Notes: generated by a model from the sequence alone, not told the origin. Counted from the stretch's first letter, positions 3,888-20,000 are shown. The stretch: DNA of 20,000 nt from Chiloscyllium plagiosum (GCF_004010195.1 NC_057717.1:103439205-103459204); one strand, 5' to 3'. A program made the numbers and translations.

Positions 3888-4495
3888 CTTGCCCTGGATG
3901 AGTGCAGCTCCAACAACACTCAAGAAGCTTGATACCATCCAGGACAAAGCAGTCCATTTGACTGGTACTATAACCCTCCAGGAGAAAGTGAGGACTGCAG
4001 ATGCTGGAGATCAGAGCTGAAAATGTGTTGCTGGAAAAGCGCAGCAGGTCAGGCAGCATCCAGGGAACAGGAGAATCGACGTTTCGGGCATAAGCCCGAA
4101 GAAGAAGAAGAAATGTCGACTCAGTAGCAGCAGTGTGTACCATCTACAAGATGCACTGCAGGAATTTACCAAAGATCTTTAGACAGCACCTTCCAAACCC
4201 ACATCCACTGCCATCTCGAGGAAAGAGCAGCAGATGCATGGGAACATCACCCTCTGCAAGTTCCCCTCCAAGCCACTCACTATCCTGACTTGGAACGACA
4301 TCATCGTTCCTTCACTGTCTTTGGGTCAAAATCCTGGTACTCCCTCCCTAAGGGCATTGTGGGTCAACCCACAGCAAGTGGACTGCAGCGATTCAAGAAG
4401 GCAGCTCACCCCCACCTTCTCAAGGGGCAACTAGGGACAGGCAATAAATGCTGGGCCCAGCCAACACTCCCCACGTCCCATGAATTAATTTTTAA
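3888..4495 (+). mobile_element. LINE 3' region (same family as 1934-2178), interrupted by a short repeat at 3980-4120
   Basis: WMSAAPTTLKKLDTIQDKAVHL before the insertion. After it: AAVCTIYKMHC and SFTVFGSKSWYSLPKG...FKKAAHPHLLKG, then GGGCAATAAATGCTGG. Confidence 0.85.
3980..4120. mobile_element. Short non-coding repeat, family H1 (GGAGAAAGTGAGGACTGCAGATGCTGG...), with a fold-back end and (GAA)n
   Basis: Near-identical to 6785-6902 and similar to 19877-19993, 16083-16290 and 10638-10730. Confidence 0.85.
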
Positions 4496-5107
4496 AAACA
4501 CACTCTCCATGAGCCAAAATCCAGCAAAATCTCAAATCTAACACGGATTCAGTCCTGACTTTCCTGTTTCAAGACACTACCACCACCATTTACAAATTAA
4601 AATAGTGCCTTTGTTATTGCACAACGCACCAGAGCAGGTTCAGACAAAACAAAACCTGGCATTGAGCCGGAGGAGGAAGATCTGGGCATGGGTGATCAAA
4701 AGCTTGGCTGGTTTTGGTGTTCCTAGACCTGGACCGACAGACCCAGGTTCAAATCCCACCTGCTCCCAAGATGCGTAATAATATCTCTGAGCAGGTTGAT
4801 GAGAAAATATATATTAAGGAGGGTCTTTCAGCAAGAGATAATTATTGAGGAAATTTAAGAGTTTAGGACCCAGGCAGCAAGCTCACAGTCATTGATGGTG
4901 GGGGAAGAGATACTGACAGGAGATCAGGGAATTGCAGAGATGGGAGAAACCAGAGAATGATTGGATACTCACTAAACTCTGCAGTGAGATTTCCAAATGC
5001 ATTCAAACTTGTGTGGATTACAACCATCCAAAATAGGAGCAGCAGTAGACCATTCAGCCCCTTGAGCTTACGTTGAACAGTCTGCTTCTGTTCCTGCTTT
5101 GTCAGCT

Positions 5108-5326
5108 TGCGTCACTCCACAGAGGCCAGTATCCTTTAGCTAAACGCGGAGAGTCCTTGACACTGATTCAGCTCCCTCAGAGCCAGCTCTCAGAGTGAGG
5201 AGAACCCCTGACACTCCTGGTGATACCTGTCAGACAGGGCTCCCGGACTGGACCAGAGCAACAGCCTTAATCAGGGAACTCAGATTCTATGAAGTCCCTC
5301 TAGCTGACCTCGTTACAATCACTGCA
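5108..5326 (-). mobile_element. Probable solo LTR (Gypsy-like), diverged
   Basis: The minus strand begins TGCAGTGATTGTAACGAGGTCAG and resembles a short shark LTR as I recall it. The other terminus is degraded and I found no TSD. Confidence 0.5.
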
Positions 5327-6105
5327 TATGGAACCCCAGGAAATTTCTGCAATAATCTTTAGCTGGATGGCTGGGGAATAATTCAGAAACATTTAAGCAG
5401 CAGGCTTTAGGAGAGTTTTTTATCTTCCATATCTAATGTCTCACACAGAACAGCTGAATATTTACACCCCCTCCTGCAGGGGATTTGGATCCAGATCTTC
5501 TGATTGCAAGGAAGTTAAATATCTCGCTTTCCCTCCCAAGGGCATCATGTAGCACTCCCCCTCTGCTCTGCTGTTAAATTTATGAGGGCGAGAGAAAAGA
5601 GATTTAAATGTAAAGCAGTAACATTTGTCATCACCTCCAGCCAACTGAGAACACTGGGAGCTCATGATTCTCTATCACGGCAGCATCAATTCGTCAGCTC
5701 CAACTCTGAAACATAACTGCAAGGGACACTTGCAGGAAATGCACATTGCCAGACTCTCACCCTCTCCAACTTCACCCACCACCACCACCACCCTCACCCC
5801 AGGCAAGCTGTCACCCAGGGGCAAGCTGCAGGAAGTTGACAAGAACAGTGGTAATCGAGCCTTTGTCCCCTGGTTAACCTGCATCTAATCAGTGACTGAG
5901 AACTAGAGAGAATGGAGTGGGGAGTGGGCCAGGAGGGTTATTTCACAACATTGTCTCCCTCCGGCGAGGCCAAATTTTCAACAGTGCTTTTCATGATGAC
6001 CACCTGTGATTTTGACATGCAGTCACCGCTGGGACGTAGGAAGCACAGCACATTTGCGAGCAGCACTGTGAGAATGATCAAATAATTGTGTTCCAGTGAC
6101 TAACA

Positions 6106-6297
6106 TAAAGACAAAGTCACTGTAATCGCACTCTCTGATTAGAAAGGGATACCTGGTGATGAGTTGCATCACATGCCGCATGTGAGGCCTGAGGTTGAGA
6201 AGGTATGGTTACCCCGATTGGTGCAGGAATTGAATCCATTGCTGTTGGTGTCACCTCTGCATCACAAATGAGCCATCCGATGAACTGAGCAAACCAA
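6106..6297 (-). mobile_element. tRNA-derived SINE, family S2
   Basis: Minus-strand head GGTTTGCTCAGTT...GGATTCAATTCCTGCACC. Homologous to 10012-10175, 12683-12845 and 14889-14946. Confidence 0.6.
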
Positions 6298-6329
6298 CCC
6301 TATAGCGGCGCGGACCACTGGGAAGAACG

Positions 6330-6735
6330 TAGAGTCATATAGCACGGAAACAGACCCTTCGGTCCAACCAGTCCGTGCCAAACATAATCCCAAACTAAAC
6401 TAGTCCCACCTGCCTGCTCCTGGCTCCAAACCCTTCCTATTTATGTACATATCCAAATGTCTTTTAAATGTTGTAACTAGATGCACATCCTCCACTTCCT
6501 CAGGAAGTTCATTCCACACACGAACCGCTCTCCATGTAAAACATTTGCCCCTTGTGTCTTTTTTAAATCTCTCTGCTCTCACCTTAAAATATGCCCCGCA
6601 GCCTTGAAACCCCCTACCCTGGGGGAAAGACACCTACCATTAAGCCTATCCACACTTCTCATGCTTTTATAAACCTCGATAAGGTCACCTCTCAACTTCC
6701 TACCCTCCAGTGAAAAATGTCCCAGCCTCTCTTTG
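6330..6735 (-). mobile_element. CR1 3'-end fragment
   Basis: Minus strand: FSLEGRKLRGDLIEVYK...VRVWNELPEEV..TTFKRHLDMYINRKGL..AGRWD*, with a 3' UTR ending ATGACTCT. Confidence 0.9.
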
Positions 6736-6780
6736 TAGCTCAGATCCTCTGCTCTGCTTCCCAGGCTTGGCTATGTGATC

Positions 6781-6912
6781 GTTGAGGAGAAAGTGAGGTC
6801 TGCAGATGCTGGAGATCAAAGCTGAAAATGTGTTGCTGGAAAAGCGCAGCAGGCCAGGCAGCATCCAGGGAACAGGAGAATCGACGTTTCGGGCATAAGC
6901 CCTTCTTCAGGA
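6781..6912. mobile_element. Short repeat family H1 insertion with an 8-bp TSD
   Basis: ATGTGATC occurs at 6773-6780 and 6913-6920. The body is near-identical to 3980-4097. Confidence 0.85.
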
Positions 6913-6914
6913 AT
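6878..6914 (-). ncRNA. Candidate minimal type I hammerhead ribozyme (family H1)
   Basis: The minus strand reads AUUC-CUGAAGA-A-GGGC-UUAU-GCCC-GAAA-CGUC-GAUU: intact core boxes, a 4-bp stem II, palindromic ACGU stem III and a GUC cleavage triplet. Stem I is weak. Confidence 0.65.
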
Positions 6915-7174
6915 GTGATCTTCTACGCCCACTGGACAGGGCAGAAGGTCCTCAGTTCGGGATCCCAGAATACCGCAGTGCTCTCTCAGTGACAGGTAGG
7001 CCAGAGTCTGCAGCCACATCTCAGGGATGGGAATCGGGCTTGAGAACAGAACGCTGTGGAAAAGAAATATCCACGATGACACTTAACAAACGGAAACATG
7101 GCCTCACATTCATGGAACTTCAACTAGCCTGCCACTTAACCTAACAAAAGTAGGAAATGCATTCAAGCAAACCC

Positions 7175-7263
7175 AGACACCGTTGGAGAAACTCAGTGTG
7201 TCTGGCAGCATCTGTGGAAAGAGAAACAGTTAATATTTCAAGCTCAGTGACCCTTCTTCTGAA
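7175..7263. mobile_element. Short repeat family H2 (GGAGAAACTCAGC..GTCTGGCAGCATCTGTGGAGAG..AAACAG..TTAA..TTTC)
   Basis: Homologous to 8645-8737 (inverted), 8892-9012, 9015-9145 and 11296-11520. Confidence 0.75.
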
Positions 7264-7894
7264 CTGTATGAATTTTTCATTACAGCGCTTTAACAAATCA
7301 ACACATTCCTGATCTAACTTGTCTTGTACATCTCAAAACGGAGCACCGGAACATTCAATCCCAAGCATGACTGGATTATTTAAGTGTGTTTTTCTCTCTG
7401 GGGGAGTCTGTGGGGGCTGGGAAGGTGGGAGGATGTAAAAAAGGCTTTTTAAACTGGTCCCTTAGTGTACTCCCATTCCATATTAGGGATGGCATAGCAG
7501 TCTGCCTGAATGATGAGTGGGTGAGAGATTATGAGCATCCTGGAATTCTGCAACATCCAGTCTGTTATTGTTCCCAGTGGACATCAGCTTATCTCGAGAT
7601 AGATCTCAGATGAGCCAATTTGTCAAAAAATGAAATCTTTCTCATCTTATCTGGAGAGATTCATCCCTCACGGAGGTTAAAAAAACAAAACACTCTTCAG
7701 TTTCACCGTTAATATCAGACAAGGCAGTGTGAAACTCTGAGGGAGACAGTTAATAAGCTTATCAGAAGTCTGTGCTTTGTGGCCTGTTATCACTCAAGTT
7801 GCCACAGTCACCCTCTCACTCTATCCTATCTCCTCCATAGCCTACACTCTAAACACACTGACCTTACCCAGAGCTCTAATTGGCACCACCTAAT

Positions 7895-7998
7895 GGGGTG
7901 AGGGAGCTGGGGGGAGTGAGGGTGCTGTGGGGGACGGTGAGGGATTTGGGGGGAGGTGGTGAGGGGCTGGGCAGTGAGGAGGTTGGAGGATGGAGGTG
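7895..7998 (+). repeat. G-rich low-complexity tract (degenerate GTGAGGG repeats; G-quadruplex-prone)
   Basis: Many runs of three or more G and four recurrences of GTGAGGG within ~100 bp. Confidence 0.7.
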
Positions 7999-8605
7999 TG
8001 TGACAATGCTGCTCCCTTAACATGATTATGTTGTCCTTGGTTTTTGTTTCAGAGGGATCATAAAGTCATGGGTTCCGAGATGTCTGGGTTGAACTACTTG
8101 AAGAAACTTTTAAGTTTAAAAAAAAAGGCGCTGATACAATGAAAGGGGGGTCAATTCTCCAGAGCACAGCTTTTCGCTGGTTTGGTTTAGCTTTAGCAGT
8201 CTGGCTGTTCTGGGCTGCTGGTCAGTTGTTATCTGAGAATCCATGGCTCCATGGAAGGTATTCCATGCTGCATCTCTCTCTCTCCCCTGTAACACTCTGT
8301 GTTTGATTTTTATATTGCTTGCCAAGGGGTGTTGGTGGGGATCATTGTAGGTATTTGGAACAGCTTCATTAAATTGGGATTTTTGGATTGGTTAAGTTAT
8401 TCTATATTCTATTCTCTTTTGTGTTTCATTTGGCAATCTTGCAAATAAATTCTGTTTTTGTTTAAAACTGAGTGGTTTGACCAGCTGCATCCCTCCTGGA
8501 ATATCCACTATATACCTGCTTAACACAACTAGAAAAGTTTGGGTCCAGGCTACCTTTTGAAATGTTTTTGATGAGGGGGGGCGGAATCTGGCCTGGTCCA
8601 TAACA
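7999..8605 (+). mobile_element. Solo LTR (607 bp) with a 4-bp TSD
   Basis: Begins TGTGAC and ends ATAACA (TG...CA). GGTG flanks it at 7995-7998 and 8606-8609. AATAAA lies at 8444-8449. No internal coding sequence. Confidence 0.8.
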
Positions 8606-8644
8606 GGTGTCAATGAATTTCAAGTGCATTAACAATCCCAGCTG

Positions 8645-8737
8645 CTCAGGGAAAGAGTCATACCAAACTTGAAACATTAACTCTGTTTCTCTCTTTCTCT
8701 CCACATTTGCTGCCAGAGTTTGTCCAGCACTCTGTCT
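8645..8737. mobile_element. Short repeat family H2, inverted orientation
   Basis: GAAACATTAACTCTGTTTCTCTC...CCACATTTGCTGCCAGA is the reverse complement of the H2 body. Confidence 0.7.
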
Positions 8738-8891
8738 CCGTGAGGAGAGGGTCAGCTGACACTGGCAGTGCCCACTCGCACGTTTCATCACAGGATGTGG
8801 GCAAGGCTTCCAGCTGTTGCTGTCCCCAGCTGCCCCTGAACCAACAGGATTATCCCGGGGGCACTTGGGTCAGTCGAACAACAGCCAAATA

Positions 8892-9145
8892 AAGGCAAGA
8901 TCCTGCGAATGCTGGAAATCTGAAATATACTCAGGGAAACTCAACAGGTCTGGCAGCTTCCGTGGAGAGAGAAACAGAGGTAACATCTCGCGGTCAGTGA
9001 ACCTTCTTCTGATACATAAAACAAAGATGCCGAAAGTCTGAAACAAAAAGAGAAATTGCTGGAGAAACTCAGCAAGTCTGGCAGCATCTGTGGAGAGAGA
9101 GAGAAACAGAAGGAACACTTTGAATCCAGTATAACTTTTCTTCAT
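8892..9145. mobile_element. Two head-to-tail copies of short repeat family H2 (8892-9012, 9015-9145)
   Basis: Both carry GAAACTCA.CA.GTCTGGCAGC.TC.GTGGAGAGAG..AAACAGA and end near CTTCTTC / TTTCTTCA. Confidence 0.75.
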
Positions 9146-9240
9146 TGCAAGCTTGGGGGATACCTAGCCCTGCTAGTTTCTTTTTATTTCAAATATATAC
9201 TTTACTCATAAAAATATCTTTCTATATCTCCGTAGTCACT

Positions 9241-9448
9241 AAGTTAAAAATCACACAACACCAAGTTAGAGTCCAACAGGTTTATTGGGAAGCACTAGCT
9301 TTTGGAGCGCTGCTCCTTCGTCAGGTGGTTGTCAGGAGCAAGCGTTCTAAAAGCTAGCGCTTCCAAATAAACTTGTTGGACTGTAACATGGTGCTGTTGA
9401 TTTTTAACTTTGTACACCCCAGTCCAATACCGACACCTCCAAATCATA
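9241..9448. mobile_element. Short repeat family H3, fold-back (inverted) pair with a probable TSD
   Basis: 9241-9327 pairs imperfectly with the reverse complement of 9335-9410. Flanks CGTAGTCACTA (9231-9241) and CATGGTCACTA (9449-9459) look like a TSD. Homologous to 15257-15384. Confidence 0.8.
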
Positions 9449-9471
9449 CATGGTCACTAGCGCAGTTCTGC

Positions 9472-9820
9472 TCTGGATGTAGGTTTGCTCGCTGAGCTGG
9501 AAGGTTCTGAGCTGAGCTGAGGGTCTAGAAGCATGGCACTCCAACCAGAACTCTATCAACAAACACATTGGCTTGGATCCCATTTATCACCCCCGAGAAA
9601 AAGAACAGGAAATGACATCACCATACGAAATGGCATCACCAACCCAAGGAAACCCAAACGTATAAATAGAAAGCGGGCTACACCCACCAGTGCTTCATCC
9701 AGAGGCTCACTGAAGATGTTACCCAGTATGGTGACAAAACATCTGGAAACAAACCTTCCAGCTCAGCGAGCAAACCTACAACCAGAACTTCAACCTGAGC
9801 TACAAATCTCAAAACTCACT
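9472..9820 (+). mobile_element. Penelope-like element 3' end: GIY-YIG C-terminal remnant, pseudo-LTR and an inverted partial pseudo-LTR at the 5' side
   Basis: 9525-9590 translates as LEAWHSNQNSINKHIGLDPIY (Penelope-type endonuclease terminus). TATAAATA lies at 9661. 9472-9506 is the reverse complement of 9752-9786 with one mismatch. A hammerhead-like motif sits at 9708-9745. Confidence 0.8.
9708..9745 (+). ncRNA. Degenerate hammerhead ribozyme motif in the Penelope-like pseudo-LTR
   Basis: CA-CUGAAGA-U-GUUACC-CAGUAU-GGUGAC-AAAA-CAUC-UG. It has a 6-bp stem II, but G12 appears mutated to A, so it is probably inactive. Confidence 0.6.
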
Positions 9821-10011
9821 CGCAGATCAATTCTGTGCAGCAGCATATAAAGAAACAAACCTTAGAGTTTGACTCTAGCCAGCAAACCAACCCAAGGCAT
9901 TTCTTACTTGTACAAGACTATATTTATATATATTTGAGGTACCAGGAGGGTCCAATAACTGGACCCCCATTTACCTTCAGCAGAAAGATCTCAGATGATG
10001 ATCTTTCTCCA

Positions 10012-10175
10012 GGCTAGTTTGCAAAGATATCAACAGCATGAGTTCAATTCCTACACCAGCTGAGGCTACCATGATGGTCCCTCCTTTGAACCTCACCTGA
10101 GGCTTAGTGACCCTCAGGTTAAGCCATCTTTTTTTTCTATGGAGAGAGTAGCCCGATGTTGACTTCATCTTTAAC
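10012..10175 (+). mobile_element. SINE family S2 fragment
   Basis: GAGTTCAATTCCTACACCAGCTGAGGCTACCATGA...GTGACCCTCAGGTTAA matches 12683-12845. Confidence 0.65.
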
Positions 10176-10637
10176 TCTACATCGTTCTCTTTGCTGCATC
10201 TCCCCAACAACTTCCTAGGTTTCTTTCAGAGAGCAGTTAATTTATTTTAGCTCCACAAATGATCAATGGTGCAATGCTGGTAATGGGATAATCGATTGCT
10301 GCTCCCTCTCTCCTGACTGTCACTTATTAAACACCTGAACAAAAGGGGGAATTCTCCCCAAGAAGAACACAAAACCAAAACTCCATTGTATCGATTGCAC
10401 GTATTCCACTCTGCGCATCAGGTTCTGTCAACAGTGTGAGGAAATCTTCCAGATTTATACACAGTTAATCTTCATCAGACTGGAACCAGCAAATACTTCA
10501 CAGTGAAATGGTTTCCAACACCAAAGGTCCAACAATAAAAAAAAATAAATCGGTTTCGAACAAGTGTGCATGAAATCTAATTCAAACTGTGATACAGTGG
10601 CAGTGTTCCTACTCTGGACTAGAGACAATCTGCCTCT

Positions 10638-10732
10638 ATTCCTGATGAAGGGCTTTTGCCCAAAACATTGATTTTCCTTCTCCTTGGATGCTGCCTGAAC
10701 TGCTGTGCTTTTCCAGCACCACTCTGATCTAG
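10638..10732. mobile_element. Family H1 copy (inverted) with a decayed hammerhead motif on the + strand
   Basis: ATTCCTGATGAAGGGCTTTTGCCCAAAACATTG followed by GGATGCTGCCTGAACTGCTGTGCTTTTCCAGCAC. Confidence 0.8.
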
Positions 10733-10754
10733 AACCTAGAGACACTTGAGTTGA

Positions 10755-11088
10755 GCGGCACGGTGACTCAGTGGTTAGCACTGCTACCTCCATCACCAGG
10801 GGCGAGGGTTCGATTCCAACCTCTGTGTGGAGTTTGCACATTCTCCCCATGTCTGTGTGGGTTTCCTTTGGGTGCTCTAGTTTCTCCCCACAGTCTGAAG
10901 ATGTGCAGGTTAGGTGGATCGGCTGTGCTAAATTGCCTGTAGTGTCCAGGGATGTGAAGGCTAGGTAGGTTAGCCATGGGAATGCAGGGTTACAAGGATA
11001 GAGTGGCGGAAGTGGTTCTAGGTGGGATTCTCTTCAAAGGGTTGGTATGAGCTGAATGGCTTGCTTCCACACTGTAGGGATTCTATGA
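10755..11088 (+). mobile_element. HE1-type V-SINE (tRNA head, V domain, CR1-like tail)
   Basis: A box TGACTCAGTGG, B box GGTTCGATTCC, V-domain TGTGTGGAGTTTGCACATTCTCCCC..GTCTG.GTGGGTTTCC, and tail CCACACTGTAGGGATTCTATGA. Confidence 0.85.
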
Positions 11089-11295
11089 AATGCCACTTGC
11101 TTCAGGGTATATAATAATATTGCTGAAGAGGTTGAGCATAAGAATGTTTCAAACGTCAGTTATAGGTATCAAGAAGACAAAGCATAATGTTCTCTCACAC
11201 TTAGTCTGACAACACATTTGATTTGCTTAAGTAACCAGCTTTCTCCAAATCTTTGTTTACAACAAAAATACAATTGAGCTCCATAATGTAAAGTA

Positions 11296-11522
11296 AAGAG
11301 AGAAATTGCTGGTGAAACTGAGTATATCTGGCAGCATCTGTGGAGAGGGAAACAGAGTTAACGTTTCTGAAGAAGAATTGTTTTGGACTCAACTGTTTCT
11401 TTTTCCACAGATGAAAAAGAAACAGTTGAGTCCAAAACAATTCTTCTTCAGAAACGTTAACTCTGTTTCCCTCTCCACAGATGCTGCCAGACCAGCAGAG
11501 TTTCTCCAGCACTTTCTGCTTT
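11296..11522. repeat. Family H2 fold-back element containing a perfect 79-bp inverted repeat (11327-11405 / 11413-11491, loop CACAGAT)
   Basis: Checked base by base: the arms are exact reverse complements. The outer flanks pair only imperfectly. Confidence 0.95.
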
Positions 11523-11845
11523 TAGATTTAGATTTAGATTAGATTAGATTACAGTGTGGAAACAGGCCCTTCGGCCCAACAAGTCCACACCGACCCACCG
11601 AAGCGCAACCCACCCATACCCCTACATTTACCCCTTACCTAACACTATGGGCAATTTAACATGGCCAATTCACCTGACCTGCACATCTTTGGACTGTAGG
11701 AGGAAACCGGAGCACCCGGAGGAAACCCACGCAGACACGGGGAGAATGTGCAAACTCCACACAATCAGTCGCCTGAGGCGGGAATTGAACCCAGGTCTCT
11801 GGCGCTGTGAGGCAGCAGTCTAACCACTGTGCCACCGTGCCGCCC
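11523..11845 (-). mobile_element. Full-length, young HE1-type V-SINE with a (TAATC)n tail
   Basis: The minus strand starts GGGCGGCACGGTGGCACAGTGGTTAG, has B box GGTTCAATTCCC and the V domain, and keeps many CpGs. The tail appears as TAGATTTAGATTTAGATTAGATTAGATTA on +. Confidence 0.9.
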
Positions 11846-11929
11846 GCTGCAATGAGCTTCTATATTGTGCAAATACTGATTGACATAAATGTCCTGTTAT
11901 TTCTTTCTAAATAGTGGACTCTAGCATTT

Positions 11930-12560
11930 CTGTCTCCCTCTCTCCTAGGATTGGTGGTTTTCCAATATGTTGGAATCTACTGAATTACGGGATATTTTAG
12001 CTAATATCTTCGCTATCTCTGCAGCCATTTCCTTTAAATCTCTTGGATGCCAGCCATCAGGCTTCTAGTGACCTGTCTGCCTTCAGTCCCATTAGCTTGT
12101 CAAATACTTTGCATCTCCTGAGGGAGACTATCACAAAACCTTTCTTCCCATCAGAACCTTGCTTATCTGATATCTTTGGGATGTTTACAAGGTCCTTCAA
12201 TGTGAAAATTAATGCAATATACTGGATTAGATTATCTGCCAATTCACCATTCCCCATTATTAATTCCTAAGTTTCAACCTCCAAAACTCCCACATTCACT
12301 TTAGCTACTCTCTTCCTTTTTAAGCCTCTGTAGGACTTCTTGCCATTTGCTTTTACATTTCTTACCAATTCACTTTCAAAATCAATTTTCTCCTTCTTTG
12401 TAAGCTTTTCAGTCATCTGCTACTGATTCCTAAAAGATCCCAACCAATAATTTTCACCACTTTGTATGTTTTTGATTGATTACTGTCCTTGACCACCTTT
12501 GTTAACCAAGAGTGGTCTGTACTCCTCAACGAATCTTTTGTCTGGAATAAATCTTCACTG
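11930..12560 (-). mobile_element. Old CR1-like ORF2 internal fragment (tether / RT N-terminus)
   Basis: Minus strand: ELADNLIQY...KVFDKLMGLKADRSLEA..DGWHPRDLKEMAAEIA, matching the CR1 SPGPDG.HPR.LKE motif. Confidence 0.75.
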
Positions 12561-12682
12561 AGTGTTGTGAAGTTTCTGACACAATTTCAAGGAAGTGCAG
12601 TGACCTTCTCCCTGTTATCTCTCAATCAACATCACAAAAACACTCCAACTTGGGCCTTGCCATATTGTGGCAATAATGGCTC

Positions 12683-12845
12683 AGTTAGCTCAGTTGACTG
12701 GATGATCAGGTTGCCACAAAGGGTGACACCAACATTATGGGTTCAATTCCCACACTGGCTGAGGTTACCATGATGGACATTTCTTCCCATACCTCTTCTC
12801 CCTTTACTGGAGGCTGGTGACCCTCAGGTCAAATCACCCCCAGTT
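12683..12845 (+). mobile_element. SINE family S2
   Basis: GTTAGCTCAGTTG (A box) and GGGTTCAATTCCC (B box), followed by GGCTGAGGTTACCATGA. Confidence 0.7.
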
Positions 12846-12848
12846 GAG

Positions 12849-13710
12849 ACCATAAGACATAGGAACAGAGCAGATAGGTTTCTCAACCCCATCTCCCACT
12901 TTCTCCCTGTAAATCTTGATACTCAGGAACCTATCTATCTCAGTCTGAAATATACTCAGTGACCTGGCCTCCACAGCCTTCTGTGGCAATGAATTCCATA
13001 GATTCCCCACTCCCTGGCTGAAGAGGTTTCGCCTTGTGCCCATTCTAAAAGGTCTTCCCCTTTACTCTAAGGTTGTACCCACAGGTCCTAGTCTCTCATA
13101 TCAATACAAACATCTTCAGATTTCCCACAGTGTGGAAACAGGCCCTTTCACCCAACCAGTCCAAAACAACCTTCCGAAGAGTAACCCACCTAGACCCATT
13201 TCCCTCTGACTAACGCACCTAACGGTATGGGTGATTTAGCATGGCCAATTCACCTGACCTGCACATCTTTGAACAGAGCACCCAGAGGAAACCCATGCAA
13301 TGTGCAAACTCCACATAGACAGTAACCTGAGGCTGGAATTGAACCTGGGACCCGGGTGCTGTGAGGCAGCAGTGCTAACCACTGAGCCACGTGCCACCCT
13401 AACATCCTTCCCAACATCCACACTGTCCAGGCCATTTAGAATTTGGTGTGTTTCAATTAGGTCTCCCGCACCCCCCCATCCTTCTCAACTCCGTCGAGTA
13501 TAAGCCCAAAGTCCTCAAACGTTCCTCATATGTTAAGCTTTTCATTCCTGGGACCGTTCTTGTGAATCTCCTCGGAACACGATCCAGGGCCAGTACGTCC
13601 CTCCTGAGACATGGGGCCCAAAGCCTTATGGGGCTTCAGAAGGTACATCCCTGCTTTCATATTCCAGTCCTCTCAAAATAGGTGCCACCATTGCATTTGC
13701 TTTCCTGACT
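12849..13710 (-). mobile_element. CR1 3' fragment interrupted by a V-SINE
   Basis: Minus strand RRNLFSQGVGNLWNSLPQKAVEARSLSIFQTEIDRFL, with a tail seen as CCATAAGACATAGGA on +. Upstream of the SINE (13400-13710) it reads RRDVLALDRVPRRFTRTVPGMKSLTYEERLRTLGLYS. Confidence 0.85.
13118..13399 (-). mobile_element. HE1-type V-SINE with an imperfect TSD
   Basis: Head GGGTGGCACGTGGCTCAGTGGTTAGCAC and B box GGTTCAATTCC. Flanked by AACATCTTC (13109-13117) and AACATCCTTC (13401-13410). Confidence 0.85.
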
Positions 13711-13744
13711 AGGTGCCTCTCTAATGCGAGTGCAGGACTACAGT

Positions 13745-13860
13745 GACTTTGCTGTCACATTGTAAGTGCATGCTGTGCACATTTCCTACATTACAGCAGT
13801 GCCATACTTCGAGAAAAGCCTGTCAAGTGCTATGGAAGGTGCTATAGAAGTGCAAATCTC
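13745..13860 (+). mobile_element. Deu-domain SINE 3' remnant
   Basis: TTTCCTACATTACAGCAGTG..ACTTC and GAAGGTGCTATAGAAGTGCAA resemble the DeuSINE/AmnSINE1-type 3' part. Confidence 0.5.
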
Positions 13861-13869
13861 CTCTTGTTT

Positions 13870-13970
13870 GGAACATAGAACAGTACAGCACAGGAACGGA
13901 CCCTTCCGCCCACAACGTTGTGCTGAACTTAACGCCAAACTCATCCCTTCTGCCTGCCCTTGGTTCATAT
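13870..13970 (-). mobile_element. CR1 3' tail remnant
   Basis: GAACATAGAACAGTACAGCACAGGAACGGACCCTTCCGCCCACAACGTTG is similar to 695-745. Confidence 0.7.
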
Positions 13971-14694
13971 CTTTGGCTGTCAAAGATTTCAAGGTGGAAT
14001 TTCTCTGGCCAAAGAAATTTAAATATTCGAGCGATTTTGTCCTTGGGGTGTGGAACAGACCTCGGAGAGTTCGCTCACGATGCAGATGTCAATGGGAATC
14101 GAGTGCGGAACCAGAAACAAACTGGCTGGCAGCCCAGTCGATTTTCAGGATAATAATAGCACTGCCCAGCAACACCAAGTTCAGCTGATTTCCTGCAGCC
14201 AATGGGGGTGGCTCCGTTGTGAGTTATTAGCATCTAATGATCAAGCATTATTTATCAGCATCAATTATCAGCTAATCTGCCGCAGCCTGGAATACTCCAG
14301 ATCACTAATGTATTCATAACAGCTGCAGTTCTTCAAGATAAAGACAAAGGGAAATCATCCTCAATTCTGCTCCAGCCAAACTGGACAATTCACTCAAACT
14401 AATCTCCGCAAAATGTTCTCAAAAGAATCAGGGACGACTTTGAGAGGAAAGATACAAAGTGTAGACTCATGTTGGTCAACACAAGCCATTTCCTCCACTA
14501 ACAGGCCGGATTTACACATGTTTATTCCATTGATTAACGTGTAAAACAGTCACACATTTGCAACACGCTAATGAGACCTTTGGGCATTATAATGCAATTG
14601 TGACTCTGGCCAGATATGTTTCACCGCGCAAGGCCACCCCGCTGCTGTGGGATAAGGCTCCTTCTCTTACGAAGTGTGGTCTCAGCCGGGATGG

Positions 14695-14870
14695 ACGGAA
14701 TGCAACAGCTCACTTATGCACAGCAAGATCCCAGAAGCAGCAATGTGACAATGATCAGGCAATCTGTTTTTGACAGTGGCGTACACAACATTGGCCCAGG
14801 CAGAGGTGCCTTGCACTCCTTCAGATAGTGATGTGGGACCTTACCCCGGGTTTAATTGGGCGTCTTAACC
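14695..14870 (-). mobile_element. Deu-domain SINE remnant
   Basis: The minus strand reads CAAAAACAGATTGCCTGATCATTGTCACATTGCTGCTTCTGGGATCTTGCTGTGCA, the Deu core as I recall it. Confidence 0.6.
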
Positions 14871-14949
14871 CATCGCCTTCCTCTCTCAGGTTAGCTCAGT
14901 TGGGCTGGTTAGTGATACCAACAGGATGGGTTCAATCCCCACACCATAT

Positions 14950-15105
14950 TTTGTTCCCTCTGGAGTGTCGGAGGCTGAGGGGTGACCTTATAAAGGTTTA
15001 TAAAATCATGAGGGGCATGGTTAGGGTGAATTTCTCAGGTTAGGGGGCTCCAAAACCAAAGGGTATAGGTTTAAGGTGAGAGGGGAAAGATTTAAAAAGG
15101 CAACT
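14950..15105 (+). mobile_element. CR1 ORF2 C-terminal fragment
   Basis: LFPLECRRLRGDLIKVYKIMRGM...GYRFKVRGERFKK. Confidence 0.85.
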
Positions 15106-15256
15106 TAGAAATGTATAGGATGGAAATGGACCCTTTCGTCCAACTCGTCCATGCCAACCAGATATCCTAAATTAATCTAGTGACCCATTTGCCAGCATTT
15201 GGCCCATATCCCTCTAGACCATTCCTATTCATATACCCATCCAGGTGCCTTTTAAA

Positions 15257-15384
15257 AAAATCACACAACACCAGGTTACAGTCCAACAGGTTTATTTGGA
15301 AGCACTAGCTTTCAGAGCGCTGCTCCTTCATCAGGTGCACTATAACTGCGTTGAGTGATTTTTAAGACTGGCTCTTCCACATCA
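15257..15384. mobile_element. Short repeat family H3 insertion with an 11-bp TSD (1 mismatch)
   Basis: TGCCTTTTAAA at 15246-15256 and TGTCTTTTAAA at 15385-15395. The body matches 9246-9327 and is followed by a short inverted remnant. Confidence 0.85.
15301..15340 (-). ncRNA. Candidate minimal type I hammerhead ribozyme (family H3), intact core
   Basis: The minus strand reads GCAC-CUGAUGA-A-GGAGC-AGC-GCUCU-GAAA-GCUA-GUGC: 4-bp stem I, 5-bp stem II, palindromic AGCU stem III and a CUA cleavage triplet. Confidence 0.7.
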
Positions 15385-16082
15385 TGTCTTTTAAATGCTT
15401 TAATTGTACCAGCCTTCACCACTTCTCTGGCAGCTCATTCCACACACGCACCACCCTCTGCATGAAAAAGTTGCCCCTTAGATCCCTTTTGTATCTTTCT
15501 CCTCTCACCTTAAACCTATGCCCTCTCGTTCTGAACTCCCCCACTCCAGGGAAAAGACATTGTCTGTTTACCCTATCCATGACACTCATGATTTTATCCA
15601 TACCCTTCATGTTTTTGTAAAAGGAACTCCAAAAGCATGTTGTATAAAGGCAGCGGAATAAAGTTTAAAATCCTTTGACCGACCATCTCCTGAAATTTAA
15701 CCTAATTTCCCATGATATTCCAAGTGCCATGCCGCGGAGTGTTAATTAAGGTCAGGACAATGTCTCCACAGAATAGTCTAGCAGAGGGATTATGCAACCA
15801 TGAAATGACCGATGAGAGGATCTTCGATTCATCGAGTAAAGAAAGAACAAACAGTCAGTTAAATCAATAAATGAGAGTATCTCAAAGGACCTCAATTCGC
15901 AGCCGGAGAACTGTCTTTGAAGAGTAGCCCTTGTCATTTAGTTGGCCAACATTCACACAGCACAGTCTCACAAAGAGAAAGAAAACTGAATGGTCAGCCC
16001 GTCAACTCTGACAGATCTATTTAGCTTCGAATACAAGATGTCATTGTTGAGCTGCACTGAGCCTGAGTTGGACCAGAGGAAG

Positions 16083-16290
16083 GAGTCAAAAGGTGTGACT
16101 CTGGAAAAGCACAGCCGGTCAGGCAGCATCCGAGGAGCAGGAGAGTTGACGTTTTGAGGATAGGTTTTTCGGCTTATGTGTGAAACATCAATTCTCCTAC
16201 TCTTCAGCCGCTCCCTGACCTGCTGCGCTTTTCCAGCGGCACATTTTTTTTGACTCTGACTCTCTAGCATTTGCAGCCCTCACTTTCTCC
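16083..16290. mobile_element. Family H1 fold-back pair (diverged inverted copies)
   Basis: CTGGAAAAGCACAGCCGGTCAGG (16101-) pairs with CCTGACCTGCTGCGCTTTTCCAG (16214-). The pair ends CACTTTCTCC. Confidence 0.8.
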
Positions 16291-16292
16291 CA

Positions 16293-16378
16293 GGCCTGAG
16301 GAAGGGTTATACCGAAACATTGACTTCTCCTCCTCCTGATGCTGCCTGTGTTCTTCCAGTCTCCTGCTCGTCTACCTG
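16293..16378 (+). mobile_element. H1-related short repeat beginning with a hammerhead-like motif
   Basis: CCTGAGGAAGGGTTATACCGAAACATTGAC followed by CTCCTCCTCCTGATGCTGCCTG. Confidence 0.55.
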
Positions 16379-16479
16379 GGGTAGCTCTGAGCTGTTCTGG
16401 GCATTGTGCTTTAGCAGTGACAAATTTGCCTTGGCTAATTCAAGAGAGTAAATGTCAGACTTCTCATGCATTTAAAGTG

Positions 16480-16850
16480 AGGAGAGACTGCACAATAAAG
16501 GGCTGTATTTCACCAAATTTAGATGGTTCAAGGGGCTACATGATTAAAACCCATCAAGATATTAAGGGGGAATTGATAGGGTAGAGGAAATGAAATTACT
16601 TCTGCTGGTTGGTGAATTGAGACATGGGGATATGGCTGAAACTTTAGAGTGATGTAAGGAAGTTTTTTGAGACACACGGGAACAGAGTGGACTTGTCTCC
16701 CACAGATTGTTAATTGCATTAAATTGTTAACTTTAAATCAAAGGTTGATAGGTTTCTTAAGGGATATGGAGCAATGACAGGTATTTGGAGATAGATCACA
16801 GATCCCATTGAATGGTGGAACAAGGGGCTGAATGGCCTGATGCTATGTTC
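16480..16850 (+). mobile_element. Old CR1-like 3' fragment
   Basis: AGATGGTTCAAGGGGCTACATGATTAAA..AAGATATTAAGGGG (RLRGDLI..KI-like) and the tail GGGGCTGAATGGCCT. Confidence 0.65.
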
Positions 16851-17284
16851 CAGTGAACAGGTCACCTAGCATGTGGTAAGATAAATCTCCATCACTGCTC
16901 ATGGTGCTGTCTGAGCTGTCCAACAAGTTACTGTCATCATCCTCTTTCTTAATAAGGGAGCTACAAGACTTGATGGGCCGAATGGGGCAGAGGAAATACA
17001 GTCTAATGGGAATGAGACTCTTTTCATCAATAAAGTGTGGTTTATTGCAGATAACGGTCAGGTATGAATTATATTGGCATCGTGGTCATCATTACGGAGA
17101 CTCTGGGGGAAGACCCAGATGGTCGGGCTTACTCCTTTGGGATCCTAAATTGTCCTTTCTCCCTGCAAGTCTCTATGGCATCTTCCCATTACATGGTGTT
17201 TAAGGTACTCCTCAGCATTAACCCCTTTCAGACTCTTACACATCAAAGAGGACAACTGAAACCCCACTCCTTTTTGAAGTATAT

Positions 17285-17890
17285 GAACATGGGAAGGAAG
17301 ATAAGGAATGGGAAAAACCATTTCGCCTCTCAAGATGGTTCCACCGTCCAATTAGATCTCAATCTCTCTGCCCTGGCTCCAGCACACCTAACACCATCGC
17401 CCAATAAAAATCGGTCAATCTTCCTCTCAAACTTCCAATCAATGCACACTATCAACAGCTTTTGTTTTGTGGGGAGAGAGATGTTCAGATTCCTAATCTC
17501 CTTTTGTGCTTCCTGACACCCTCCCTAAATGAGATTCTGCCCCCATTATTCTGAACATTCCTCACAGCCCCCAAACCCCAGTGGAAATATTTTTTCTTTA
17601 TTGACCTTATGGAATCCGTTGACCCTCTTCAATGAGATCATCCCTTAATTCCCCATGCTTCAGGGAAGGTCAAACTGCTCCATGAGTTGTTTTAGTCCTG
17701 GTATCATTCTAAAGGGCATCTTCACTACCATTATGACCTTCCTGAGGTATAGTGCTCAGAATAGAAACCATACTCTCAATGGGCGACCATATCCAGAGTG
17801 TTATGTAAATGGTTGCTCCCTTGTTTTGACTCTTTCAGGGAAACATTTATTTAATCCTTTTGAACACTTCAATGAGATCAGCCTTTAATC
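17285..17890 (-). mobile_element. Very diverged CR1-like 3' fragment
   Basis: A tail-like GAACATGGGAAG...AGGAATGGGAAAAACCATTTCGCCTCTCAAG on +, with degenerate WN.LP and EID.FL-type blocks on the minus strand. Confidence 0.45.
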
Positions 17891-17917
17891 CACATTAAAG
17901 CCTTTTTGCATTCCACT

Positions 17918-18070
17918 CGTGGACAGATGGGTCTCCTATTTAAAATCTCATTCAAACGACGACACCTCCAACAGTGCCAGAGCCCTTCAGTGCTACACTG
18001 CAATGTTAACCCAGAGTTGTGAAGTTTGAACCATGACCCTGTTGACTGCAATGCACAGATGGACAGCTAA
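17918..18070 (-). mobile_element. Deu-domain-like SINE 5' remnant
   Basis: The minus strand has GGTTCAAAC (B box) and CACTGAAGGGCTCTGGCACTGTTGGAGGTGTCGTCGTTTGAATGAGA. Confidence 0.5.
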
Positions 18071-18637
18071 GCAAGTGCCAATTTCCCTTGCCAAGGGGTT
18101 AACAGTAAGTGCCTACTCCATTCACATCTCTCAGAGCAATTCGTATTCTCCTAGAAACTAACAAGTGAAATGAAGATGGAAAAGGTGCCTTGGGTTTAAG
18201 TCAGACACTATTCGAAGTATTCCTGTTCATTGTCATTGGAGGAACAAAGATTATGTTACTGGAATGATAAATGGTTTCTTTATGTGCTCACTAACAAGAC
18301 ATCTGGGATTCCGAGTGAGCCGTGTGTGTTCATTCTGTATCAGACGTTCACTGCTTCTGAAATTAATTCCAACTGTGGGAGCCCTGCCACATTTCAACTC
18401 CCTCAAGTTATCTTTGATCATTTAATGAGAGCCACTGAATTAACTGAGGGGAAAGGAATGGGGATCGAAAATTGATGCAAGTGTGGAGTGCAAAACAGCC
18501 TAAACATTTAGTTGTGTTTCAATGTCACGCACACAGAACAGCTGTCAGTTTATCTATTTTCTTTGGTCACAACTAGAAGGAGTTCTGAGGGTCTTTTTGT
18601 TTTTATTTTCAGTGCGTGTTCAATCAGACTGCACGCT

Positions 18638-18987
18638 TTCATGGATGGCCTCTGACAAGATCAATGTTTGCTACCCATCCTTATTTGCCCTTGAGTGGAG
18701 TGGTCGGTTAAGCCATTGGCGAGGTTAAGAGGCTGTGGGGTTGGAGTCACATCTAGGCCAAAATGGCAGATTTCCTTCCCTGAAAGAACATGAGTAAATC
18801 AGATGGGTTTTTACAACAATCAATGGTTGTTGGCATGATCACCATCACCAAAGCTAAATTTATCTTCTAGAGTTATGAACTGTTTTAGATTCCACCAGCC
18901 GCCCTCATGGGATTTGAACCCTTAACCCCAAACAGTTAGTCTAAGCCTCTGGATTGACAGCCTACTGGCTTTGTCACTACCTCACCA
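18638..18987 (-). mobile_element. tRNA-derived SINE, family S3, with a LINE-derived tail
   Basis: Minus-strand head GGTGAGGTAGTGAC and B box GGGTTCAAATCCC. The core GGGAAGGAAATCTGCCAT is shared with 19202-19441, and the tail resembles the 3' end at 2110-2150 / 4420-4485. Confidence 0.65.
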
Positions 18988-19201
18988 TATTGTACTGCAA
19001 AGACACAAGAGTGATTTATAGAGAGCACCCTTTGGCTCCAATGTTAATCTAGTAGAACAAGAGTCCACAATTCTGCCACATCCAACAGCATAGTCACCCT
19101 ATCAGCCCCGGTTAAACAATCATATTTTTCACTACCGATGGTTGCACGGTGTACCATCTATAGCATCTGACCAAAATTCCATTGACAGCATTTTCCAAAG
19201 T

Positions 19202-19441
19202 GTGGTATGATGGCCAAATGGTATTATTGTTAGACGTATGAATCCAGAGTTCCAGGTAACGCTCTGGGGAGCTGGGTTCATAACCTGCTATGACCGATGG
19301 TGGTAATTGAATTCAATTAAACAATTTGGATTTGAGAGTCAAATGATGGTCATGAAACCATTGTTCATTGTTGAGGGAAAACCCCCAAAATCTGGCTCCT
19401 TAATGCCCTTTAAGGAAGGAAATCTGTCATCCTTACCTGGC
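19202..19441 (+). mobile_element. SINE family S3 (3'-truncated)
   Basis: TGGCCAAATGGTATTATTGTTAGAC..AATCCAGAG..GGGTTCATAACC, then AAGGAAGGAAATCTGTCATCCTTACCTGG. Confidence 0.65.
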
Positions 19442-19444
19442 TCA

Positions 19445-19692
19445 ACTATCCTCCCAGGCAGGTCAGACTCCCACTACACTCTGGATGAGAGCACTTCTCC
19501 TCAAATCCCACTAAACCTCCTGTCTTTCAATTTGAAATTATTTCCCATTGTCACTGGCCTTTCGAGTCAGAGAAGCATCTGCTTCCTACCCGACCTTTCC
19601 ATGCTCCTCATAATCTTATATACCTCAATCAGGTGCTCCCTCGGCCATCCCTGCTCCAAAGCCAACAACTCAAGCTTATCCAGCCTCTCCAT
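19445..19692 (-). mobile_element. CR1 ORF2 C-terminal fragment
   Basis: Minus strand ERLDKLELLALEQGWPREHLIEVYKIMRSME, a decayed RLRGDLIEVYKIM block. Confidence 0.75.
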
Positions 19693-19694
19693 GC

Positions 19695-19876
19695 CTATAT
19701 GGGCTTCAGTAAAGCATTCAACAAGGTTCCTCATGGTAGACTGGTTAGCAAGGTTAGATCACACGGAATACAGTGAGAACTCGCCATTTGGGTACAGATC
19801 TGGCTTGAAGGGAGGTGACAGAGAGTGATGGTAGAGGGTTGCTTTCAGACTGGAAACCTGTGACCAATGGAGTGCT
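19695..19876 (+). mobile_element. CR1 RT fragment
   Basis: YMGFSKAFNKVPHGRLVSKVRSHGIQ*ELAIWVQIWLEGR*QRVMVEGCFSDWKPVTNGV. Homologous to 458-635. Confidence 0.9.
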
Positions 19877-19993
19877 AGGAGAAAGTGAGGACTGCAGATG
19901 CTGGAGTACCAGAGTTGAAAAATGTGGTGCTGGAAAAACACAGCAGGCCAGGCAGCATCCGAGGAGCAGGAGAAACGACAGTTCGGGCATAAG
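19877..19993. mobile_element. Short repeat family H1 copy adjoining the CR1 fragment
   Basis: GGAGAAAGTGAGGACTGCAGATGCTGGAG...GGCAGCATCCGAGGAGCAGGAG..TTCGGGCATAAGC. Confidence 0.85.
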
Positions 19994-20000
19994 CATAAAA

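Follow-up and report, generated by a model that had tools for sequence, protein, structure and literature searches.

Minimal hammerhead motifs abundant in the Chiloscyllium plagiosum genome probably mark the 3' ends of Penelope-like elements

Short repeats that share the layout of a hammerhead ribozyme are scattered along a 20,000-nucleotide stretch of the Chiloscyllium plagiosum genome (GCF_004010195.1 NC_057717.1:103439205-103459204; hereafter, the window), a repeat-rich part of contig C8 in a genome of 3.56 Gb. An earlier note on the window had described three such families, H1, H2 and H3, as well as a 'Penelope-like LTR' (long terminal repeat) that we call H4, and had proposed that H1–H3 are non-coding derivatives mobilised in trans by Penelope-like elements (PLEs). 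The locus raises the question of whether these repeats are elements in their own right or pieces of the PLEs themselves. We conclude, with a probability of roughly 0.85, that H1, H3, H4, and probably H2, represent the 3'-terminal ~85–330 nt of several endonuclease-bearing PLE lineages, each with its own minimal type-I hammerhead, and that their copies are made by target-primed reverse transcription. Sources of which part of the text was available are cited below as 'in part'.

Hammerhead architecture of the four repeat families

All eight sites named in the earlier note were found where it had placed them, read here in the orientation in which the CUGANGA box comes first. The motif is still intact in only two of them, H1a and H3b, while the other six have decayed, mostly at CpGs. 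The same two were the matches in the window to a strict descriptor that demands CTGANGA, zero or one extra base, a perfect stem II of 4–8 bp, GAAA, an A-N-N-T palindrome and then H. H1a (C3 at 6910, minus strand) reads CTGAAGA-A-GGGC/TTAT/GCCC-GAAA-CGT-C, with predicted cleavage between 6883 and 6882, and H3b (C3 at 15334, minus strand) reads CTGATGA-A-GGAGC/AGC/GCTCT-GAAA-GCT-A. RNAfold predicts stem II for H1a; for H3b its minimum-energy structure contains both helix I (GCAC/GUGC) and stem II. Among the decayed sites, H1b (10638, plus strand), H3a (9327, minus strand) and the 'PLE' site (9710, plus strand) have lost G12 (GAAA to AAAA) and have decayed CpGs, H1c (16296, plus strand) has a shortened stem II, and the CUGANGA box is mutated at both H2 sites. 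Undoing CpG decay in the window copies restores exactly the forms found in the genome; the H3 sequence CCGAAA, for example, appears in the window as CTGAAA and CCAAAA.

First-order Markov shuffles of the window (n=200) gave a mean of 0.03 descriptor matches, and none with the palindrome and H, against two in the real sequence. The Rfam hammerhead models gave no match in the window, either at the gathering score or at E≤10. Nevertheless, the assignment to the hammerhead type is borne out by the boxes, the unpaired base, G10.1-C11.1, the palindromic helix III and helix I, all of which are present.

Base pairs were counted from motif anchors in 15 representative sequences covering five stem types; a MAFFT alignment of these hammerheads, in which H3 lies one column off register, was not the basis of the counts. 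Pairs 10.1–10.4 of stem II are standard in all 15 representatives: 10.1-11.1 is G-C in 11 and G-U in four, the latter through a C to T change at the CpG shared with G12; 10.2-11.2 is G-C, U-A or A-U; 10.3-11.3 is G-C, A-U or U-G; and 10.4-11.4 takes four pair types. Pair 1.1-2.1 of helix I varies by family as well (G-C, U-A or A-U), helix I having 4 bp in H2 (AGUU/AACU), 3 bp in H3 (CAC/GUG; 4 bp in the window copy H3b) and 2–3 bp in H4. The unpaired base between A9 and 10.1 is A in H1, H2 and H3 and U in H4. The palindromic 15.2-16.2, which lacks a loop 3 and is followed by H17, reads ACGU+C in H1 and H4, ACGU+U in H2 and AGCU+A in H3, so that the family differences reported earlier, with stem II differing yet paired and the palindrome passing from ACGT to AGCT, are as described.

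The claim of covariation around fixed boxes stands between families, where all 15 representatives have standard pairs; within a family, covariation was not seen. With stem II left free, 60,243 H1 matches were obtained genome-wide; a hand count of the first 100 gave 77 with GGGC/GCCC and 23 with a changed stem, none of the 23 compensated and 11 carrying the CpG transition at 11.1. Uncompensated change of this kind is what one would predict from selection on the master elements combined with neutral decay of inserted copies.

H1 also contains a 13-nt quasi-palindrome, GAAACGUCGAUUC (10/13; window 6872–6918, minus strand). Cofolding of H1 through this segment yields –24.1 kcal/mol, compared with –16.4 for two monomers, and is predicted to sequester G12–A14 and to compete with the catalytic fold.

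Abundance of the motifs in the genome

We counted exact patterns, leaving only the N7 base and loop II free, across the 3.56-Gb genome, and ran a reversed-pattern control for each. H1 has 80,723 exact matches, H3 5,851, H4 960 and H2, by its strict pattern, 102, while every reversed control gave 0. The four families together account for at least 87,636 exact minimal-hammerhead motifs, or ~25 per Mb, and the earlier surmise that they are very abundant proved correct. Since shuffles yield almost none and reversed patterns none at all, chance is excluded for the hammerhead motifs.

In ~297 kb of sampled loci, the descriptor detected 41 further matches off the targeted sites, all but three of which belong, by our own reading, to H1–H4. 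The extra base after A9, to which the earlier note had drawn attention, is present in 39 of these 41; it is not new, however, having already been described (PMC4209133).

Near-identical H1 words (share 0.35–0.88) occur in sequencing runs X1–X18, which carry the labels of four different organisms. This points to a young H1 family that is common to, or very similar in, several related species.

Association with Penelope-like reading frames

Upstream of the hammerhead, longer H1 copies pass into a common 3' untranslated region (UTR) and then into a reading frame. At locus L022 this frame reads IIYCIRCSRCGLLYIGE... and scores 23.1 bits against Pfam GIY-YIG (cut-off 22.6). At L092, the H1 element is a ~3.0-kb insertion in a long interspersed nuclear element (LINE) reverse-transcriptase frame, and its target-site duplication of 11 bp is AATATTTCATC; the stop codon precedes the hammerhead by ~210 nt, the 3' end comes ~100 nt beyond the hammerhead, there is no upstream pseudo-LTR, and its frame is readable over the last 80 codons only. 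The H1 C-terminal 74 aa, compared with the genome, gave 91,656 first-look candidates, and all 150 that were scored are at least 92% identical. A search of the genome with the Pfam GIY-YIG family gave one weak match among 150 scored of 14,402 candidates.

H3 has a conserved ~540-nt 3' UTR, preceded by a frame ending ...RLIAKFGTHRDGLNRDLGFMSHY. An 80-aa piece of this frame is 76% identical to P0009, a 643-aa shark protein with an RVT_1 match (36.5 bits), a YIDD box and a VVYLIRC...WYIGKT motif noted by eye. P0009 also has a CX2-5CxxC-like linker, which may suggest the Neptune clade. For H4, locus L094 has a head-to-head pair whose longer arm carries VIYKIPCKDCNKHYIGQT; the stretch L094:1563-1778 scores 23.9 bits for GIY-YIG and lies ~430 nt upstream of the hammerhead. 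The window copy at 9511–9817 retains the last codons of this L094-type frame; thus, what had been called a pseudo-LTR at 9708 is instead a 5'-truncated PLE end, with a 35-nt inverted arm beside it. Pfam gave no match on the H4 C-terminal pieces, the only homologues retrieved with an H4 C-terminal query were two host-gene isoform models, and a sequence search of the PDB returned only chance-level rows.

The motifs do belong to PLEs, as had been proposed: the H1 and H4 frames pass the GIY-YIG model and the H3 relative has RVT_1. Conversely, the idea that H1 and H3 are separate non-coding derivatives did not hold, since their longer copies run directly into PLE frames. The short copies are therefore most simply truncated or short retrocopies of PLE 3' ends, and H1, H3 and H4 are mainly truncated PLE copies rather than separate families mobilised in trans.

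In public shark annotations, predicted isoforms of host genes (P0002, P0015, P0017, P0027, P0028) contain stretches 57–96% identical to PLE frame ends. The genes concerned are PPP1R12A-like, septin 5a, XRCC5, WBP2-like and one more; these stretches represent either exonisation or contamination of gene models by PLE fragments.

Copies in the window and their insertion signatures

The earlier count of about ten loci is reasonable: between 3979 and 19994, BLAST with family references detected ~12 places, which together hold ~19 arms or pieces:

3979..4097, minus strand: H1 copy, 5'-truncated inside stem II, no CUGANGA box, full 3' tail; BLAST 98% to the L012 H1 reference, +8..+126
6785..6915, minus strand: H1 short unit with intact minimal hammerhead (H1a); C3 6910, long 3' tail form, 97.7% to reference
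7165..7259, minus strand: H2 copy, decayed (box is CAGAAGA); 80% to H2 reference (BLAST)
8653..8720, plus strand: H2 copy, decayed (BLAST); arm of inverted pairs I5/I6
8936..8984, minus strand: H2 fragment, decayed (BLAST)
9032..9144, minus strand: H2 copy, decayed; BLAST 80% over 115 nt
9238..9332, minus strand: H3 arm with hammerhead (G12 lost), left half of head-to-head pair (BLAST; inverted pair I3)
9334..9447, plus strand: H3 arm of the long-tail form, its 5' end truncated within stem II, right half of the pair (I3: 57-nt arms, 86% complementary)
9472..9506, minus strand: H4 short inverted copy of element 3' end (I4: 35 nt, 97% complementary to 9752-9786)
9511..9817, plus strand: H4 5'-truncated PLE 3' end, long-tail form, with last frame codons; hammerhead C3 9710, G12 lost, CpGs decayed; 86% over 261 nt to L097
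10624..10734, plus strand: H1 copy of the CTGATGA/TTTT subfamily, G12 lost; positions -13..+91, 87% to L092 reference
11294..11524, no single strand: H2 head-to-head pair, hairpin with 112-nt arms (I1, 90% complementary)
15256..15337, minus strand: H3 short unit with intact minimal hammerhead (H3b), short-tail form; C3 15334, 96% to reference
16088..16290, no single strand: H1 head-to-head pair, arms 16088-16154 and 16171-16290 (inverted pair I2)
16293..16380, plus strand: H1-like unit of another subfamily, decayed hammerhead; C3 16296, adjoins the preceding tail, right end judged by eye
19877..19994, minus strand: H1 copy from +10 to tail, 86% (BLAST); 5' part beyond the window end

PLE insertions have been described as heavily 5'-truncated, with a second 5'-truncated copy next to them in inverted orientation and, in some cases, a tail of 30–40 bp (PMC8557442, in part); the tail is attributed to two internal start sites of reverse transcription, and the enzyme primes on both DNA strands (PMC11167929, in part). 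All of these published signatures are present here. H1 copies have two 3' ends, at ...cattttcagct or, 34 nt further on, at ...cactttctcc. H3 3' ends are bimodal, at +78..+89 in 16 and at +108..+123 in 17 of 40 selected copies; H4 ends are short in four of seven copies and ~40 nt longer in the other three; and H2 likewise has two alternative 3' ends. Across the families, the optional tail measures 34–40 nt. In the window, all four families are represented by a head-to-head pair (11294–11524 for H2, 16088–16249 for H1, 9255–9397 for H3 and 9472–9786 for H4). Target-site duplications of 7–15 bp accompany L003, L009, L010, L023, L027 and L092, as well as H1a, which is flanked by an 8-bp direct repeat, ATGTGATC, at 6773–6780 and 6913–6920; duplications given earlier as 8–11 bp are thus present, at ~8–15 bp.

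The reported lack of a tRNA head was confirmed, ARAGORN finding 0 genes in the window; the units begin with the hammerhead, which sets them apart from tRNA-derived short interspersed nuclear elements (SINEs). Tandem Repeats Finder detected no tandem arrays of units in the window, where copies are dispersed or inverted. An H1-like unit abuts an H1 tail at 16290/16293. Some H4 motifs occur in pairs 387–409 bp apart. The one pair inspected, at L099 (C1:95528900-95530100), is a duplicated inverted/direct unit, a block of inverted and forward H4 arms repeated with a 387-bp period and adjoined by an H1 fragment, and is an example of complex nested PLE insertions.

The H2 hairpin at 11326–11494 matches Rfam models of plant and animal microRNA precursors with E down to 7e-14, all far below the gathering scores; such hairpins are open to being mistaken for microRNA genes. 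Hairpin and short copies should be annotated as PLE ends, and not as SINEs, miniature inverted-repeat transposable elements (MITEs) or microRNA precursors.

Elsewhere in the window, positions 1–1900 contain, as judged by eye only, a LINE-type reverse-transcriptase fragment, and tRNA-like GGTTCGATTCC-type boxes, also seen by eye and with no ARAGORN tRNA, occur in several repeats at 10755–11090, 11560–11850 and 13130–13400.

5' ends of the short units and RNA reads

The H1 'TTAT' core 30-mer has 30,936 exact matches genome-wide. ATTC at –4..–1 is retained in 18,329 of these (59%), and TCCTCATTC at –9..–1 in 8,227 (27%), from which it follows that about three quarters of these copies end no more than 9 nt upstream of C3, with the proviso that part of the drop may reflect mutation of the extra bases matched. 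The unselected H1 copies (n=63) have their 5' end at –13..+2 in 26 cases, at –27 or further upstream in 14, and within or past the hammerhead in 23; among selected H3 copies, 25 of 40 start at –12..+2. As cleavage would fall ~28 nt downstream of C3, hammerhead cleavage cannot produce this cluster. We infer that a promoter lying immediately ahead of helix I, in the 3' UTR or pseudo-LTR of the PLE, may give rise to many of the template RNAs; initiation of transcription within the pseudo-LTR has been described for PLEs (PMC6765202, in part). If reverse transcription of such RNAs then began at the first internal site alone, units of ~95 and ~130 nt would result.

In run X19, a poly(A) single-cell RNA library, 2,003 reads in both directions were placed on H1a, 95% of which run into unlike flanks, and 198 extend into PLE 3' UTR sequence. 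At no position do many molecules start or stop, so that X19 gives no indication of an H1 RNA that is dedicated or cleaved, although libraries of this type are unsuited to reveal one. A second raw RNA run, X20, had 0 reads placed.

Seven H2 copies with upstream sequence in common (L077–L083) were considered as long H2 elements and rejected, as they lie in paralogous host regions on one contig (C8, 4.8–53.8 Mb). These regions share more than 1 kb of flank at 60–80% column identity, and were duplicated after the H2 insertion.

Origin of the repeats and alternative explanations

We propose that new copies would arise by target-primed reverse transcription that can initiate at either of two internal positions close to the 3' end, the choice of site giving the alternative 3' ends 34–40 nt apart that correspond to the PLE tail. 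Synthesis would usually halt early, leaving mostly short copies, and priming on both DNA strands would generate the head-to-head hairpin copies. Master elements would keep the hammerhead, which would explain why stems co-vary between lineages, while inserted copies would decay neutrally. By analogy with published PLE hammerheads, cleavage may be weak and may take place in a dimer formed through the palindromic ACGU/AGCU helix III; the role of the hammerhead in the PLE cycle is unsettled in the literature.

Several results weigh against this account. The 5' ends cluster within ~9 nt upstream of the hammerhead, a pile-up not predicted by plain random truncation, and none of ~24 independent H2 copies in our sample continues upstream. 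The frame evidence for H1 consists of the C-terminal GIY-YIG end, the reverse-transcriptase part lying outside the readable stretch. The 80-aa H3 piece has no Pfam GIY-YIG match and no BLASTP alignment to two H1 frame pieces, so that the link between H3 and GIY-YIG is drawn through its relative P0009 and motifs read by eye. Helix I of H1 is weak, with 2 bp, a U-U mismatch and 1 bp (4 bp in the L003 subfamily), and two cofolded H1 hammerheads pair through GAAACGUCGAUUC and not in the catalytic fold, a prediction that says little about activity. Finally, the predicted cleavage site is not marked in X19 by any pile-up of read starts or ends, in a type of library poorly suited to show it.

Some of these points would be accommodated if the short units of ~85–135 nt, which start 1–8 nt before the hammerhead, were separate non-autonomous retroposons, SINE-like or resembling monomeric retrozymes, that produce their own RNA and borrow PLE proteins in trans. 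The sharp 5' boundary seen in the H1 'TTAT' cores, the 26 of 63 unselected H1 copies that start at it and the H2 copies that never continue upstream all speak for such units, as does the H1 'CCTG' loop subfamily, short or inverted in four of four sampled copies, and non-autonomous PLE derivatives have been proposed in print (bioRxiv 10.64898/2026.07.22.740005 and PMC7229834, both in part). We nevertheless regard this explanation as unlikely: short and long copies of H1 and H3 have the same subfamily sequences through hammerhead and tail, copies start at many other points both upstream of and inside the hammerhead, and within-family stem changes are uncompensated (0/23 among the first 100 matches). 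Moreover, the window yielded neither an internal promoter nor a tRNA head (ARAGORN), nor any tandem unit arrays, and the close pair inspected at L099 is arranged as a complex inverted/direct duplication and lacks the head-to-tail order of an array. H2, however, is an old family that behaves as a discrete short unit, and for this family mobilisation in trans as a non-autonomous element may apply. A more novel reading, which we hold to be less likely than not, is that the short units are retrocopies of a discrete RNA and do not result from random truncation. This RNA would come from a promoter of the PLE 3' UTR or pseudo-LTR immediately upstream of helix I, and its reverse transcription would initiate at the first internal site alone; the PLE end would then be a self-contained SINE-like module, and H2 a lineage surviving only in this form. 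If so, a SINE-like PLE-end module would be the reason why this shark-type genome has a higher density of hammerhead motifs than any other vertebrate known, at ~25 exact motifs per Mb.

Two further explanations dispense with PLE ends or with the ribozyme. That the hammerhead likeness arose by chance, through short boxes that happen to match within abundant repeats, and is without meaning at the RNA level, would fit the silence of the Rfam models, the decay of copies without compensation and the lack of a cleavage-site signal in RNA reads. We consider it very improbable, as four or five unrelated 3' ends keep the boxes, the unpaired base, G10.1-C11.1, the palindromic helix III and a pairing start of helix I while their stems differ; shuffles yield essentially none; and the same architecture, with weak dimer cleavage in vitro, has been published for PLEs of many animals (PMC4209133). 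It is scarcely credible that the hairpin-shaped copies are MITEs in which hammerhead-like boxes are incidental. Four inverted pairs in the window do resemble terminal inverted repeats, but the same sequences also occur as single arms with target-site duplications, the inner arm ends vary while the outer ends coincide with the element 3' end in its two alternative tail forms, and longer arms extend into GIY-YIG frames. An inverted 5'-truncated neighbour is, besides, a described feature of PLEs (PMC8557442, in part). The PLE 3' ends proposed above remain the explanation we prefer.

Comparison with known systems

The minimal hammerhead of metazoan PLEs was defined by Cervera & De la Pena 2014 (PMC4209133), who reported one unpaired base separating A9 from 10.1, a conserved G10.1-C11.1 and a palindromic 15.2-16.2, in families 'full of covariations' that occur mostly as solo motifs from truncated PLEs, with some opposite-strand pairs. 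In that study cleavage was weak and limited to dimeric or trimeric constructs; dimer cleavage was also reported by Lunse, Weinberg & Breaker, as cited in PMC6765202 (in part). The motifs described here agree with this definition in having CUGANGA and GAAA, the unpaired base, G10.1-C11.1, a palindrome without loop 3 and a short helix I, and likewise comprise several consensus families per genome with compensatory changes, mostly as solo motifs and with opposite-strand pairs. They differ in their host, a shark-type genome in which the closest named proteins are from Chiloscyllium punctatum, and in number, with at least 87,636 exact motifs here as opposed to ~9,000 minimal hammerheads in Xenopus tropicalis and ~4,000 in coelacanth (PMC4209133); cleavage of the present motifs is predicted. 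For axolotl, whose genome is much larger, 126,247 type-I hammerheads have been reported (PMC7229834, in part), and this genome may have the most hammerhead motifs per megabase reported.

In 5' truncation, inverted copy, 30–40-bp tail, target-site duplication and C-terminal GIY-YIG, these elements resemble the endonuclease-bearing PLEs Penelope/Poseidon and Neptune (Craig et al. 2021, PMC8557442, and PMC11167929, both in part). In PAc (PMC11167929, in part) the hammerhead overlaps the start of the frame, whereas in L092 it lies past the stop codon, with no upstream pseudo-LTR. Animal non-LTR retrozymes, which are short non-coding hammerhead repeats that co-occur with PLEs and were proposed to derive from PLE pseudo-LTRs (Cervera & De la Pena 2020, PMC7229834, in part), offer a second parallel. 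Retrozymes, however, form head-to-tail tandem arrays of 150–450-bp units with canonical type-I hammerheads and circular RNAs (PMC7229834, in part), while the units described here are dispersed singly or inverted, have minimal hammerheads and form no arrays in the window.

That short hammerhead repeats may be non-autonomous PLE derivatives was anticipated in the discussion of PMC7229834 (in part), and has been put forward for vertebrates, including one species of Chondrichthyes, by Li, Clavereau & Pollet 2026 (bioRxiv 10.64898/2026.07.22.740005, in part); this idea is already in print and is not new here. No paper describing these shark families was among the matches listed in our literature searches. 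The novel part of the present work is the shark PLE lineages, which stand out for their exceptionally large number of copies and for the clustering of 5' ends; the known picture of PLE hammerheads is unchanged. Tens of thousands of young copies (for H1, two CpGs are intact in 80,723 motifs), together with several independent lineages, make these families a good natural data set for asking why selection retains the PLE hammerhead and at which points PLE template RNAs start.

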